Positions 1-9,782 of a stretch of DNA of 64,000 nucleotides are shown piece after piece (the stretch's first letter is position 1; the number at the start of each line of letters is the position of its first letter). This DNA comes from Escherichia phage CL1. The translations under genes were made by a program, and so were the position numbers. Location of the stretch: the sequence record OK040806; one strand, given 5' to 3'. The notes under the pieces are model-generated. The model was not told where the DNA came from and did not search any database. It saw nothing but the letters and a program-made list of their open reading frames with translations.

Positions 1-4651
<4,651 letters not shown>

Positions 4652-4653
4652 TA

Positions 4654-5802
4654 ATGGCAGTAGGTGAAATTCAAATCAGTGCCTTGCCTCAAGCAGCCTT
4701 ACCAATCGACCTTAGTGATATCTTCCATCTTAAGCAGGGTATCGAGGATAAGAGGTGTACTCTTGAGCAATTACTTGCTCCGCACTCAAGCTTAAAGAAT
4801 AACCCTCATGGTGTTACTAAAACACAAATTGGTTTAGATAACGTTATTAATGCTCTTCAGTTAGTTGCTGCAAATAACTTATCAGATATTGTTAATGTAG
4901 CTGAGGCAAGAGCAAATCTACAGATTATGTCTTCAGAAGAGGTCAATAGCCTTATTCAACAGCATATTAATGACAAGAGCAACCCACACAATACAACTAA
5001 GGCACAGGTTGGTTTAAGTAATGTCCAGAACTGGACAACATCTAACCTTTATAATGAAGATGCAGATAAGTATGCTACAGCAAGAGCAGTAAATAACTTG
5101 TACAAGGCTGTTCAGGCTTCTTATCCAGTAGGTACTATCCATCTCTCTATGAATCCTGCAAACCCCTCTACATATTTAATTTGTGGAGGTACTTGGGAGT
5201 TAGTCTCAAAAGGGAGAGCACTTGTAGGTTATGATAGTGATTCTAGGCCAGTTGGTTCAACGTTTGGTTCACAGACTACTGCACTGACGGTTAATAACAT
5301 CCCTGCACATACCCACTCAGTGTATGTCACTGGTGGTGGTCACACTCATGGTGCAACAGCCTCTATCAGTGCTTTTGATTATGGTACTAAAGGGACTACA
5401 ACGTTTGACTATGGAACCAAGACCGTATCTACTTACGACTATGGCAACAGAACAACAAGTGCTGCTGGCTTAACACAAACAACATTCATTAATCGTGGCT
5501 ATGCTGATGGTGGCTGGAGAGGTTTATCGGTTGAGGGGGCAAGCTATGACCCAAGAGCTACGTTGACAACAGCTAACAACCACACTCACTCTGTAGCAAT
5601 TGGTGCGCATAATCATACGGTTGGCATTGGTGCTCACAGCCATACTGTTGCAATTGGTTCCCACAACCACTCAGCAACAGTAACAGTAACCGGAGCAGGT
5701 GAGCATTCTCACTCTGGCACAACTGGTCCAACTGGTTCTGGTCAAGCATTTAGTGTTGAACAGCCATCCTTCGTACTGTATGTATGGCAGAGAACAGCTT
5801 AA
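4654..5802 (+). CDS. tail fibre protein with C-terminal His-x-His repeat domain
   Basis: 382 aa, Gly/Thr/Ser-rich; C-terminal HTHSV, GAHNHTV, GAHSHTV, GSHNHSA motifs and ...GSGQAFSV...YVWQRTA end shared with the next ORF. Confidence 0.55.
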   Translation: MAVGEIQISALPQAALPIDLSDIFHLKQGIEDKRCTLEQLLAPHSSLKNNPHGVTKTQIGLDNVINALQLVAANNLSDIVNVAEARANLQIMSSEEVNSLIQQHINDKSNPHNTTKAQVGLSNVQNWTTSNLYNEDADKYATARAVNNLYKAVQASYPVGTIHLSMNPANPSTYLICGGTWELVSKGRALVGYDSDSRPVGSTFGSQTTALTVNNIPAHTHSVYVTGGGHTHGATASISAFDYGTKGTTTFDYGTKTVSTYDYGNRTTSAAGLTQTTFINRGYADGGWRGLSVEGASYDPRATLTTANNHTHSVAIGAHNHTVGIGAHSHTVAIGSHNHSATVTVTGAGEHSHSGTTGPTGSGQAFSVEQPSFVLYVWQRTA

Positions 5803-5806
5803 TTTC

Positions 5807-5835
5807 TTTACAGGGGCTTTATAGCCCCTTTTAAG
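5807..5835 (+). promoter_or_regulatory. TTTACA followed by GGGGCTTT-AT-AGCCCC stem-loop and TTTT between the two tail-fibre genes
   Basis: hairpin 5813-5828 followed by TTTT; could be weak terminator or promoter with hairpin in spacer. Confidence 0.4.
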
Positions 5836-5848
5836 AGGAAAATTTATA

Positions 5849-8200
5849 ATGGCAGATTACAAGTTGAGTGAATTAAACTCAATCGACACAATCCGTTCAG
5901 ACGACCTTCTTCATGTCAGGGTTAAAAAGAGACCTGAAATGCTAGGTGATGAAGACCGTCGAATGACCTATCAAGACTTCTTAGCATCTTTTAAACTAGA
6001 AAGATTTGTCCAGATTGCTGGCAGTACTATGACGGGTGACTTAGGAATTGTCAAGTTACTTTATGGTGGTAAGGTAGTATTTGACCCTACAGGTTCTTCT
6101 GGGATTACTATGGGGGATGTTTTAAAGACTTTTAAAATCAATGCAAACGGTCTTAAACTCACTATTGCAGATGCTTCAAGGTCTGCAACTGTTTATCATA
6201 CTCTTAATAAGCCAAGTCCTAATGAACTTGGGATGAGAACTAATGAAGAGAATGATGCAAGATATGCAAGACTTGCTGTAAATAACACCTTTAGGGCCAC
6301 TCAAAATATTCTATCTGATAATGAAACTATTATCGTTAAGAATGTTACACAAGGGATGCCGCTGTATATTCGCGGTCAAGATGCAGATGGCTCTAACAGG
6401 TGGTATCTAGGCAATGATAACAAAGGTACAGACAATCTTGTTTTAAAAAATGTTAAATCTGGTGCATATGTAGCTATTTTGGATAGCTTAATCACTGTGA
6501 ACAAATCTATCCAGATTACTGGTCAAGTTCAGCCTTCTGACTTCTCTAACTTAGATGCTAGATACTTTACTCAGACAGCAGCTAATCAGAGGTTTGCGCA
6601 GCTAGTTGGTAATAACACCTTCAGAGGTATTAATAATTTTGTAGGTGAGTTCAATATTACCAGAGATAATGCTGTGCTGGTCATTAAGAATGCCACTGCT
6701 GCAACTGGGTTGTACTTGCTTGGTCAGAAAGCTGATGGGACAAACAAGTTCTACTTAGGGACTGATGACTCTGATTCTGTAGTCAACCTACATAACTACA
6801 CCACGAGTACAACTATCTCTTTGTCAAATGTGATTACCACTACTAAGACTGTGAAAATCACTGGTCAAGTTCAGCCTTCTGATTGGGCTAACATTGACTC
6901 TAGATACATCCCAGCAGGAACTTTGAGTAACCTTGCTAAGCTAAGTGATGCAAATACTTTCAGGTCTGCACAGATTATTAATCGGGATGGCTCATTGTTA
7001 CAGCTAAAGAATACTACACAAGATGGAGAGCTATACTTTGCTGGTCATAATGCTGATGGTGTTAGAAGGTGGTACATTGGGAATGGGGAATCATCCAACC
7101 CAGAAAGACTTATTATCCATAACGGCAGAACTGCAACTACGATTTATATGCAAGATGATTTCTTGTTGAACAAAACTGTTAGAATCATTGGTCAAGTTCA
7201 ACCTTCTGATTGGACTAACTTAGATGCTAGATACTACGTTCAATCTGCAACAGATGCGAAGTACATCTGGTCAGCAGTCAGGGAGACAGTAAGAGCGGAG
7301 GATGGTGGTGTAGCTTGGAATAAACCTTCCGGAATCTATCTTGAGACAGTGCAGGGTGGTGGGGCAAACCGTTTAGTCTCACACATGTTCGTTAATACGG
7401 GAGCATCAACACCTGCTGCACAATTGATGTTTGGTTATAGAAATGGTGGAATGTGGTACAGAACAGCCAGAGATAGGGCTGGTTTTGAGGAGGATTGGTC
7501 TAAGGTTTACACAGAGGCTCAGAAACCAACCCCTTCAGAGATTGGTGCATACACTAAAACTGAAACTGACCAGAAGATTGCACAGGCAGTAAGTGACTCT
7601 ACAGACCTTAATAAAATCTATCCAGTGGGTATTGTGACATGGTTTAACAGTAATGTTGACCCTAATACAGCACTGCCTGGTCTAACTTGGACGTACCTCA
7701 ATAATGGTGTTGGTAGAACTATCAGAATTGCAGCAGCAAACGGTTCAGATGTTGCTACAACTGGTGGTTCAGACTCTGTGACGTTAGCTGTTGGGAACTT
7801 GCCTTCACACACTCACAGATTTTCTGCTACCACTTCATCTTTTGACTACGGAACAAAAAACACTAACACAACTGGTGCTCACACTCACTCTGTAAGTGGC
7901 TCTACTTCATCTGCTGGTAACCACAACCACTCCATTTCGTGGATTGGTCAGAACTCACAGCACTATTCTGGTGGTGGTGGTGCATACGTTGGTTCAGGGC
8001 CGGGTTACACCGATGCTAACGGTGCTCACACCCACACAATCTCTGGTACTGCTGCTTCTGCTGGTAACCATGCTCACTCAGTTGGTATTGGTGCTCACAG
8101 CCATACAGTAAGTGGTAACACTGGGGGTACAGGTTCTGGTTCAGCGTTTAGTGTTACTAACCAGTTCTACAAGTTAATGGCTTGGGTAAGAACTGCTTAA
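5849..8200 (+). CDS. tail fibre protein (internal tandem repeats, C-terminal HxH domain)
   Basis: 783 aa; three ~120-aa internal repeats each containing I[TI]GQVQPSD[FW]xN[LI]D[AS]RY; C-terminus HTHSV...GAHSHTV...GSGSAFSV...WVRTA parallels the upstream fibre. Confidence 0.6.
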
Positions 8201-8279
8201 TCCCTTGTTGACTGATTGTTAAGATGGTGTTAATATTCTTTATGGGTATTCTCACCATCTTGGCTGATGAGGTGATTAA

Positions 8280-8477
8280 ATGCCTACAATCCTAGCAATT
8301 CTTCTAAAAAATCTAGGTAGCTTCTTCTGGAAACTCGTTTTATCCCTTCTAAGTGAATACATGATTGAGAAAGTGTTCTTTAGGCTTGCAAGATATCTTG
8401 CAAGTAAGACAGACACACCTATTGATGATGAGTTCGTAGATAACTTAGAAAAAGCTTTTAAGGGGGAGAATAAATGA
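8280..8477 (+). CDS. hypothetical small hydrophobic protein
   Basis: 65 aa; coupled to next ORF (ATGA overlap). Confidence 0.3.
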   Translation: MPTILAILLKNLGSFFWKLVLSLLSEYMIEKVFFRLARYLASKTDTPIDDEFVDNLEKAFKGENK

Positions 8478-8845
8478 AGTGGCTAGAGGAAGCTTTTAAA
8501 AATAATATTGGTGCAATTGTAGTTGGTATTTTTAGTGTTATTGGTATGTATACCACCATGCAAGTCTCGGATGGTAAGCAAGAAGTATCTATCACAACAA
8601 AGTTACAGCAGCTAGATAATTATTCCAAAAGTAATTATTCAGCTATTCGTGATTTACAGTCTGATATGAGGCTGCTTCAGCTAGGGATGGAGAACCAGAA
8701 AGTCCAGTTAGAGAATGTTAAGGGAGAGAACGCAAAACTTACTAAGACTCTTGACAAATTCTCTGATAGTGTGAACAATCTGGCTCAATCAGTATCAGCC
8801 CTCCAAGCTATTACTGAAAAGAACACAAAGAATACTGAAAAGTAA
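8474..8845 (+). CDS. hypothetical membrane-anchored coiled-coil protein
   Basis: 123 aa; N-terminal hydrophobic helix (IGAIVVGIFSVIGMY) then heptad-like region; last gene before terminator. Confidence 0.35.
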   Translation: MKWLEEAFKNNIGAIVVGIFSVIGMYTTMQVSDGKQEVSITTKLQQLDNYSKSNYSAIRDLQSDMRLLQLGMENQKVQLENVKGENAKLTKTLDKFSDSVNNLAQSVSALQAITEKNTKNTEK

Positions 8846-8852
8846 AGTTTAA

Positions 8853-8879
8853 GGCTCCTTTTTACGGGAGCCTTTTTTT
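8853..8879 (+). terminator. intrinsic terminator ending the structural block
   Basis: GGCTCC-loop-GGAGCC stem followed by TTTTTTT, between convergent genes. Confidence 0.7.
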
Positions 8880-8882
8880 GTT

Positions 8883-9782
8883 TTATTTACCTACTGACAA
8901 AGGCGCTTCAATCTTTCCTGCATGTTGGTAGTTGTTAATACCACCGATAAAGTCACTTGCAGTGAGGTGTTTTAAGTCACTTAAAGTGTTAAGTGGTAGG
9001 CCAATCTCAAAAGTTGGTGCATGGAACTCTTCATTGTTCATCAGTTCATAAACCTGCTTCATATGGTTCTGATAAATCTGAGTATCTCCAAAGACACCTA
9101 TCAAGTACCGTGGAGTGTATCCGGTCATCTTGCAAAGAACTTCCAGAATAAAACCATAAGACGCAATATTAAACGGAAGTCCTAAGAAGGTGTCTACTGA
9201 ACGCTGATACCATTGTAAATCAACTTCACCCTCGTTAGTGATATAAATCTGAAACAGGACATGACAAGGTGCTAAAGCCATTGAGTTTGCTGCAATATCT
9301 GCTGCATTCCAAGCATTAACAAGCATGTAACGGTCTGTGATATCACCCTTCATCTTTGCTACTAAGGTCTCTAGTTGGTCTACAACGCAACCGTTATGAC
9401 CTTCGAAGTTTCTCCACTGAACCCCGTAGATTCTCCCACCTGCATCTTCTAACCAATCTTGTTCAGAAGAATAATTAGAGCTTAACCAACGTTTAAAATC
9501 ATCTGACCAGATAGTCCAACGTTCTCCGTCATTTTCACCCCAAGTACGGTAACGAAGTTCACCCAGCTTATTCTCACCATTCAGGAACCATAAAGCTTCC
9601 CCAATAACTTGCCGCGTAAACACCTGTTTAGAGGTTAAGAGTGGGAAACCAGTTCTCATATCAAAACGAAACTGTGGTGGAGCAAATGCAGAGATAACAT
9701 CTCCAGTTCGTGTAGTACGTAGTTCACCAACGGATAAAACATGGTTCAGGATATTTTTGTAACTCAAATCAGCTTGTGACAT
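8883..9782 (-). CDS. thyA: thymidylate synthase (ThyA family; pyrimidine hydroxymethylase homolog not excluded)
   Basis: 299 aa with RTGxxxxSxF, FPLLTSK, EALWFL, ALAPCH (catalytic Cys) and GLPFNIASY motifs; adjacent to DHFR as in T4 frd-td. Confidence 0.8.
   Translation of the reverse strand: MSQADLSYKNILNHVLSVGELRTTRTGDVISAFAPPQFRFDMRTGFPLLTSKQVFTRQVIGEALWFLNGENKLGELRYRTWGENDGERWTIWSDDFKRWLSSNYSSEQDWLEDAGGRIYGVQWRNFEGHNGCVVDQLETLVAKMKGDITDRYMLVNAWNAADIAANSMALAPCHVLFQIYITNEGEVDLQWYQRSVDTFLGLPFNIASYGFILEVLCKMTGYTPRYLIGVFGDTQIYQNHMKQVYELMNNEEFHAPTFEIGLPLNTLSDLKHLTASDFIGGINNYQHAGKIEAPLSVGK

Follow-up and report, generated by a model that had tools for sequence, protein, structure and literature searches.

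Two adjacent tail fibres in Escherichia phage CL1 with a T4 gp37-type tip in common, and a long-fibre shaft of repeats reassorted among relatives

Why do two adjacent tail fibre genes end in the same His-rich module, and why does the larger of them carry a series of long internal repeats as well? These questions are raised by a stretch of 64,000 nucleotides (nt) from Escherichia phage CL1 (sequence record OK040806; hereafter the window), in which an initial annotation, made from the letters and their open reading frames (ORFs), described two such genes and read both features as signs of modular host-range evolution. The two ORFs, at 4654-5802 (382 amino acids, aa) and 5849-8200 (783 aa), are real and both lie on the + strand. 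Positions 4349-8477 match Escherichia phage C600M2 (OK040807.1), a member of Felixounavirus (Ounavirinae) isolated on E. coli K-12, at 100% identity, and 236 other phage records match as well, most of them from Felix O1-like Escherichia and Salmonella phages; in the fibre comparisons below, 'C600M2' therefore stands for the fibre sequences of the window. GenBank names the two products 'tail fiber protein' (C600M2_25, 382 aa) and 'tail fibers protein' (C600M2_26, 783 aa), and they are very probably the short (STF) and the long (LTF) tail fibre of a Felix O1-type myovirus.

The module shared by the two fibres can be recognized directly at their C-termini. In a composition-adjusted BLASTP comparison, STF aa 157-382 and LTF aa 591-783 pair over 236 aa with 32% identity (E=5e-13, 22% gaps), and the corresponding Smith-Waterman score of 257 stands against 66 +/- 10 in 1000 composition-preserving shuffles (z=18.7). 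Each sub-region of the tip is significant when taken separately: z is 8.4 for the collar, which has no His-x-His (HxH) repeats, 9.1 for the needle and 12.7 for the last 25 aa, and none of the 1000 shuffles reached any of these scores. Most of the motifs quoted in the initial annotation were recovered as well: FDYGTK, GAHSHTV, GSG[QS]AFSV and W[QV]RTA are present in both fibres, and LPSHTH in the LTF, but the STF reads IPAHTH and not LPAHTH.

A search of solved structures indicates what kind of module this is. Specifically, phmmer matches the tip of T4 gp37 (PDB 2XGF; Bartual et al. 2010) to STF aa 146-352 (E=8.5e-15) and to LTF aa 651-762 (E=7.8e-15), with HMMER bias scores of 25-39 bits for these matches; the STF collar also matches T4 gp10 (E~1e-6). 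By BLASTP, the LTF is 54% identical to T4 gp37 898-994 over 103 aa (E=3e-22). The six HxH motifs of the LTF (aa 654, 678, 692, 727, 741 and 750) align with T4 gp37 883, 915, 929, 966, 980 and 989 in a three-way alignment covering gp37 785-1026, so that six of the seven T4 motifs are in register and the seventh is replaced by GNTGG. The STF has seven motifs (aa 219, 230, 310, 319, 328, 337 and 351); it keeps the equivalents of T4 883, 966, 980, 989 and 998, is without 915 and 929, and adds two at new positions, which gives two motifs for the outgoing strand and five for the return strand, where T4 has three and four. Across relatives the count is 7 or 9 in STFs and 6 or 4 in LTFs. Homology with T4, where the motifs bind iron, supports the prediction that both tips form a metal-binding needle, with 7 sites in the STF and 6 in the LTF; this is what the initial annotation suggested for a receptor-binding tip. 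In all the phages compared, STF and LTF collars show only ~30% identity, a sign that the two fibres are old paralogues, in line with the 'duplicated' tip of the initial annotation.

The resemblance to T4 extends to the order of the parts (collar, HxH needle, head, and a C-terminus predicted to return to the collar). Unlike in T4, where such a tip sits on a jointed fibre made of four proteins, it is carried here by single-polypeptide fibres of 382 and 783 aa, and the T4 heads are unrelated in sequence to those of the STF and LTF. Closer counterparts have been described recently. In Escherichia phage JohannRWettstein (Bas63; Sci Adv 2025), cryo-electron microscopy (cryo-EM) revealed a 430-angstrom STF (gp26) and a 630-angstrom LTF (gp27), each with an N-terminal domain that binds the baseplate and is structurally conserved, and with a T4 gp37-like tip of collar, needle and head with 7 and 6 di-histidine motifs, respectively, from which its authors drew the same conclusion on the needle (PMC12609058). 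The LTF of Bas63 has five beta-helix repeat domains that lie between helix-and-turn motifs and resemble T4 gp34, and both the tips and beta-helix domains 2-5 are highly variable across the genus (PMC12609058). The same two fibres are present in Sf14 (Mooglevirus), for which no fibre chaperone is encoded (PMC11821841). Fibre coordinates of these two studies were absent from the copy of the PDB that was searched.

Bas63 agrees with C600M2 in genus, gene order and fibre lengths (382 aa for the STF, 784 versus 783 aa for the LTF), and its STF is 98-100% identical in every 40-aa window. By contrast, the LTF is a mosaic: its shaft segments bh2 and bh3 are 25-68% identical between the two phages, and bh4, bh5 and the tip 82-100%; a HHxH at 692-695 in Bas63 is NHNH in C600M2. 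The N-terminus, linkers, collar and C-end of the LTF are 85-100% identical to characterised fibres. The shared tip and the repeated shaft were thus correctly recognized in the window and are already known from work published in 2025 (PMC12609058, PMC11821841). Cassette reassortment, moves between repeat positions 2 and 4, tip sharing in Felix O1 and a K-12-linked STF allele were not found in the Bas63 and Sf14 papers, and provide modest new detail.

The STF gene (4654-5802, +) is the counterpart of Bas63 gp26 and Sf14 gp52 and matches phrog_2097 (tail fiber) over its full length (E=2e-128). Its N-terminal region (aa 1-150; 4654-5103, +) contains the baseplate-binding motif GIEDKRCT at aa 29-36 and is kept at 95-100% across Felixounavirus. 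A weak local alignment that includes G-EDxR-T connects it with the N-terminus of the LTF (score 41 versus 28.6 +/- 4.6, a value reached by 21 of 1000 shuffles), and an E-D-R-K-C/M-T motif has likewise been noted in Sf14 gp52 and gp53 (PMC11821841). Two copies of a helix-and-turn motif, NPHxxTKxQxGLxNV, are found 60 aa apart in the STF (aa 50-64 and 110-124; window 4801-4845 and 4981-5025), and aa ~90-135 are matched by many PHROG tail-fibre families. The collar follows (aa 154-218; 5113-5307, +), which corresponds to Pfam Gp10_C (PF21939, E=1.8e-17, 65 bits with a cutoff of 27) and aligns with both T4 gp10 and the T4 gp37 collar; the LTF reaches 21.2 bits with the same profile, below the cutoff, and many of its close homologues carry a precomputed PF21939 hit. 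The STF needle and head (aa 219-356; 5308-5721, +) contain the seven HxH motifs and over 124 aa share 44% identity with the needle of T4 gp37 (E=6e-16). Within them, aa ~233-320 form a hypervariable, receptor-binding part with 16-50% identity to Felix O1, EC6, Sf15 and Mordin, between flanks of 73-100%. The C-terminal return segment (GSGQAFSV...WQRTA; 5722-5799, +) aligns with the C-terminus of T4 gp37, is 91-100% conserved in Felixounavirus and, by homology, would close the collar.

The LTF gene (5849-8200, +), the counterpart of Bas63 gp27 and Sf14 gp53, matches phrog_4277 over its full length (E=0) and has 1038 homologues at E<=1e-10. Its N-terminal region (aa 1-115; 5849-6193, +), with a mean pairwise identity of 0.95 in 140 relatives, would bind the baseplate, a role assigned in Bas63 (PMC12609058). 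The three tandem repeats of ~120 aa claimed by the initial annotation were confirmed (aa ~131-251, 241-364 and 363-483); as repeats of ~115 aa they are 41% identical to the first copy, with 34 invariant columns (fragment-versus-whole BLAST, MAFFT), and gp37_trimer (PF20744) matches the protein in three stretches (E=2.5e-52, 175.3 bits with a curated cutoff of 21.7). Each consists of a linker and a cassette. Repeat 1, with bh2 (aa 131-251, core 151-228; 6239-6601, +), matches gp37_trimer and was modelled with a predicted local distance difference test score (pLDDT) of 76-86 for aa ~160-220; repeat 2, with bh3 (aa 241-364, core 263-341; 6569-6940, +), has a pLDDT of 71-92, and repeat 3, with bh4 (aa 363-483, core 376-458; 6935-7297, +), one of 69-86. 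The shaft does not end there, and in this respect three repeats fall short of its extent: the published count of domains is five, four of which were confidently modelled here. The fourth beta domain, bh5, together with the last linker (aa 483-585; 7295-7603, +), matches Pfam gp37_C (PF12604, E=1.3e-12) and resembles the Mu S fibre (8JU3) both by sequence (aa 483-577, E=7.8e-22) and by fold (E=3.5e-8). The helix-and-turn linker has a fifth copy, LTF aa 115-147 being similar to 553-585. The receptor-binding tip (aa 586-783; 7604-8197, +) comprises the collar (7619-7807), the needle and head with six HxH motifs (7808-8134) and the return segment (8135-8197).

An AlphaFold2 monomer model of the LTF, with a mean pLDDT of 53.9, is confident only in four beta domains (aa 150-230, 260-345, 375-460 and 475-560) and uninformative for the N-terminus and the tip, parts that depend on trimer formation. 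Foldseek matches this shaft to the Mu fibre 8JU3 (E=3.5e-8), the C-terminal part of T4 gp34 (4UXG/4UXE, 6e-5 to 2e-4) and T7 gp17 (4e-4); the template modelling scores (0.1-0.3) are low, since what was compared is a single-chain model of a fibre that is a trimer. The shaft domains and linkers are thus like the T4 gp34 rod (4UXE/4UXG/5NXH), Mu S (8JU3) and the C-terminal part of T7 gp17 (4A0T) in fold. The Mu counterpart is located close to the receptor-binding end and requires a chaperone, whereas in the LTF the domain is internal to the shaft and a gp37-type tip comes after it. Two size classes occupy the bh5 slot (window 7223-7504) among relatives, one of 70 aa (Mu S-like, gp37_C), as here, and one of 132 aa, which has no Pfam match in that stretch and belongs to LTFs of 812-849 aa (compared in L024, L026, L027, L028, L030, P0017 and P0100). 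In EC6 (L007 4776-6401 and 6367-7146) and the IMG/VR contigs L025 and L029 the LTF is split or truncated, with ORFs of 541 and 453 aa, probably by a frameshift or sequencing error; the LTF of EC6 is flagged as incomplete in the Bas63 paper too (PMC12609058).

How the shaft varies was examined in 27 LTFs from GenBank and IMG/VR loci and 118 from the protein database, which together gave 140 distinct sequences; alleles were classed at a cutoff of 85%. The N-terminus, collar and C-end are conserved (mean identity 0.95-0.99; collar 0.96) and the linkers somewhat less so (0.75-0.89), and between them lie cassettes with 22 (bh2), 22 (bh3), 29 (bh4) and 35 (bh5) allele classes, and a needle and head with 21 (mean identity 0.65). 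Pair identities of the cassettes are bimodal, with 63-78% of pairs below 50% and 6-11% at or above 85%. The classes recur in new company: there are 109 distinct five-cassette combinations, the adjusted mutual information between slots is 0.22-0.42, and up to 55 four-gamete quartets were counted per cassette pair. Individual comparisons with C600M2 illustrate the pattern, in that humlepung has bh3 at 95-100%, bh2 at 24% and bh4 at 28-35%, bumzen has bh2-bh4 at >=88% and bh5 at 30%, and Bas63 has bh4 and bh5 at ~90%, bh2 at 42% and bh3 at 25%. At the DNA level, identity to Bas63, bumzen, humlepung and Barry is either 90-100% or ~40%, and changes from one level to the other at the linkers, over one or two bins of 45 nt. 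Within allele classes the ratio of nonsynonymous to synonymous substitution rates (dN/dS) is 0.13-0.24, similar to that of the linkers, an estimate that the 85% cutoff biases downward. Discrete classes, their reassortment, the linker breakpoints and these dN/dS values indicate that old, individually conserved alleles have been exchanged, and do not fit drift.

Cassettes also change position. At >=60% identity there are 409 cross-position cassette pairs, all of them between positions 2 and 4, so that bh4 exchanges with position 2 in relatives; none of the 409 pairs involves bh3 (position 3). The clearest case joins position 2 of L015 (LTF nt 432-721; L015:3659-3948) with position 4 of L028 (LTF nt 1101-1390; L028:4351-4640), 94.1% identical over 290 nt, a level matched by the orthologous N-termini of these two genes. 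Given this off-register DNA match, congruent per-cassette phylogenies are very unlikely.

A third kind of exchange concerns the tips of the two fibres within one phage. The stretch running from FDYGTK to GIGAH is 71-85% identical (aa) between the STF and LTF of one and the same phage in Felix O1, L031 and L026, with collars at 31%, and in Felix O1 (L006) the two genes share a 207-nt direct repeat at 87% DNA identity (2276-2482 versus 4735-4941). The 'swappable' tip of the initial annotation is therefore seen in these relatives and not in the phage under study, where the heads are 23% identical. C600M2 is without such a repeat between its fibre genes; the longest matches are 48 nt at 79%, in the His box, and 43 nt at 74%, and recent gene conversion between the two was rejected on account of these short shared stretches. 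Since the heads differ in length (47 versus 74 aa) and sequence, and the longest DNA match between the genes is 48 nt, C600M2 probably presents two different binding specificities.

The tip alleles, in turn, show an association with the host. The variable part of the STF (aa 233-359; window 5350-5730) is >=96.8% identical in 35 GenBank phages, most of which, where a host is stated, were isolated on K-12 derivatives (MG1655, DH5alpha, C600). Nine records make up a second STF head class, at 77-85% (MG1655 was the isolation host of five), and all other relatives (phages of O157, Salmonella, Shigella and Citrobacter) fall below 60% in the STF head. The K-12 isolates sampled share LTF tip allele A, and their shaft cassettes differ widely. 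This is suggestive of the tips setting specificity for the laboratory host, for which the shaft cassettes would be irrelevant. Together with the cassette reassortment in the 140 relatives, the association lends support to the modular host-range evolution that the initial annotation had proposed. Outside the subfamily, the nearest protein matches of the STF head are fibre tips of Peduovirus (P2-like) at ~55%. E. coli prophages were rejected as a recent source of the STF tip, as only an 86-nt His-box match at 79% was found, in 64 of 5426 genomes. In the literature, the PhageMaP gene-essentiality paper on Bas63 contains no statement on the fibres (PMC11482910), and a receptor-prediction preprint does not resolve Felixounavirus receptors.

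These observations leave room for readings other than common descent of two receptor-binding tips. One is that the C-termini look alike through convergent low-complexity composition, the HxH sequences being rich in Gly, Ser, Thr and His. The needle regions are indeed compositionally biased by the 25-39 bits given above, and the tips differ in length, hence the 22% gaps; yet the shuffles preserve composition and still leave the observed score far outside their range, the HxH-free collar and the last 25 aa are significant alone, the STF collar exceeds the curated Gp10_C cutoff, and the motifs follow one another in the same order as in T4 gp37. A compositional artefact is ruled out by the shuffling as the cause of the likeness, which exceeds the low-complexity background, and convergence is scarcely credible. 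Another reading accepts the homology and holds that the 382-aa protein is a baseplate component of the T4 gp10/gp12 kind that acts only after the LTF has triggered the baseplate, rather than a receptor-binding fibre in its own right. Its sole Pfam match is to the C-terminal domain of baseplate protein gp10, T4 gp10 is among its sequence matches in the PDB, and the authors of the Bas63 study consider that the STF may act like the T4 short fibres, released after a signal from the LTF (PMC12609058). On the other hand, its best match among solved structures is the gp37 tip, not gp10 (8.5e-15 versus 1e-6), and no T4 gp12 chain is among the PDB matches of either fibre at E<=0.01; 'short tail fibre' is thus a positional name here and not a claim of gp12 homology. 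In addition, the distal STF is hypervariable between hosts and nearly invariant among K-12 isolates, as expected of a receptor-binding head, the Felix O1 STF carries the same head as its LTF, and cryo-EM shows a 430-angstrom fibre. A purely baseplate role is accordingly unlikely, while the STF may have a sequential one, binding second after the LTF.

For the shaft, the alternative to cassette exchange is that its variability reflects relaxed constraint and point mutation, the domains being inert spacers with no role in host range. Relaxed constraint is the first of the possibilities listed by the Bas63 authors (PMC12609058), and the very different shaft cassettes of phages isolated on the same K-12 host imply that the shaft is not needed to discriminate that host. 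Drift of this kind is nevertheless distinctly unlikely: identities are bimodal, alleles recur in new combinations, the linkers mark abrupt changes in DNA identity between ~40% and 90-100%, a cassette is 94% identical at another repeat position (L015/L028), and the within-class dN/dS, even if biased downward by the 85% cutoff, indicates purifying selection. A hint from experiment that the shaft has a role comes from a Salmonella Felixounavirus in which two mutations, at LTF aa 497 and 534, increased after host challenge; both would lie in bh5 if the numbering is shared (PMC6669636). At the other extreme, the LTF shaft may be an array of position-independent cassettes that act as lateral, secondary glycan-binding or defence-evading modules, with a head that can be copied between fibres. 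We consider this a tentative possibility as a whole; its shuffling component is well supported, and the candidate function of the shaft is put forward as a proposal. Recombination is never mentioned in the Bas63 paper, which offers three explanations for shaft variability (PMC12609058); cassette shuffling bears on its authors' question of why the shaft domains vary, and tells against the first of the three, simple mutational drift.

Taking the shared tip and cassette exchange as the preferred reading, the homology, motif register, repeats, mosaic pattern and breakpoints observed here can be joined to what is known of homologues, from which the trimeric fold, the metal binding, the baseplate contacts and the lipopolysaccharide receptor are taken. 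Each fibre would be a homotrimer anchored to the baseplate by its N-terminus, as in T4 and Bas63, with the STF binding a wedge protein directly and the LTF binding via the 100-aa platform protein encoded at 4349-4651, if the arrangement follows the Bas63 structure. From the collar, the chain would run outward along the needle to a small head and back to the collar. Inside the needle, the HxH motifs of three chains would stack and coordinate metal ions, which by homology with T4 would rigidify it, and the loops of the head would contact the receptor, reported for the genus to be lipopolysaccharide, on which Bas63 depends (PMC8594841). The LTF would follow the plan of the STF but with a shaft inserted, in which conserved helix-and-turn linkers lie between the beta domains. 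Diversity would arise by homologous recombination in conserved sequences, i.e. linkers and His boxes; in this way entire cassettes would pass from phage to phage, trade repeat positions 2 and 4 or, now and then, move from one fibre to the other.

Several points weigh against this picture or restrict it. No homologue of the T4 gp38 chaperone was detected in the window (tblastn, best E=0.22; gp57A was not searched for), and PHROG matches revealed no fibre-assembly families among the neighbouring genes, so fibre folding and assembly must differ from T4 in that respect. With two HxH motifs missing and two new ones, the STF needle may differ from that of T4 in geometry. The monomer model of the LTF has a pLDDT below 50 at aa 1-143 and 580-783, and consequently the collar-needle-head fold of the STF and LTF draws on sequence homology and on the published Bas63 work, in which AlphaFold models were fitted into low-resolution density (PMC12609058). 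Finally, the link between tip alleles and host is suggestive only, being based on isolation hosts and on many phages of one sampling study.

Comparable mosaics have long been described in T-even phages, where conserved motifs flank hypervariable segments of the distal fibre and adhesin genes, and crossovers swap specificity modules (Tetart et al. 1996, 1998, as cited in Trojet et al. 2011; PMC3157838). The Felixounavirus mosaic follows the same principle of recombination at conserved motifs. It differs in that whole shaft domains of ~80 aa are exchanged within one polypeptide, that they relocate between positions 2 and 4, and that heads are transferred between paralogous fibres, for which the evidence here is comparative only. 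In practical terms, the linkers, FDYGTK and the His boxes are natural crossover points and hence sensible junctions for host-range swaps in phage engineering; the genus serves Salmonella and E. coli diagnostics and biocontrol. Fibres nearly identical to those of Felixounavirus are also deposited under Staphylococcus hyicus and Campylobacter phage labels (P0068, and phage-collection records named Campylobacter phage A132, MG065664.1, and Staphylococcus), probably through contamination or mislabelling.

The gene neighbourhood of the fibre pair is a common one. Upstream lie baseplate wedge genes (Baseplate_J, 2020-3489) and then the 100-aa ORF (4349-4651, +), the counterpart of Bas63 gp25, which shares position and length with bas63_0025 and matches phrog_4141 over its full length (E=2e-61); gp25 of Bas63 is a T4 gp9-like 'LTF platform' that serves as the baseplate attachment point of the long fibre (PMC12609058). 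Two small ORFs follow downstream, and then td/frd on the opposite strand. The 123-aa downstream ORF is annotated as a holin in relatives, and the ORFs at 8280-8477 and 8474-8845 match only PHROGs of unknown function. This order of wedge genes, 100-aa platform gene, two fibre genes, small lysis-region ORFs and td/frd is common to C600M2, Bas63, bumzen, Barry, humlepung, Felix O1, EC6, Sf15 and Mordin; the equivalent fibre pair of Felix O1 is ORF76/77. ARAGORN reported no tRNA genes in the 64-kb window. A scan of 4200-9000 for promoters and terminators returned nothing beyond shuffled expectation except one hairpin at 8851-8874, which is strong and terminator-like, with a 9-bp stem and a T-run, and is located 3' of the 123-aa ORF. 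It sits at the junction of the + strand structural and lysis genes with the td/frd block of the - strand, and GC skew flips sign there as well.

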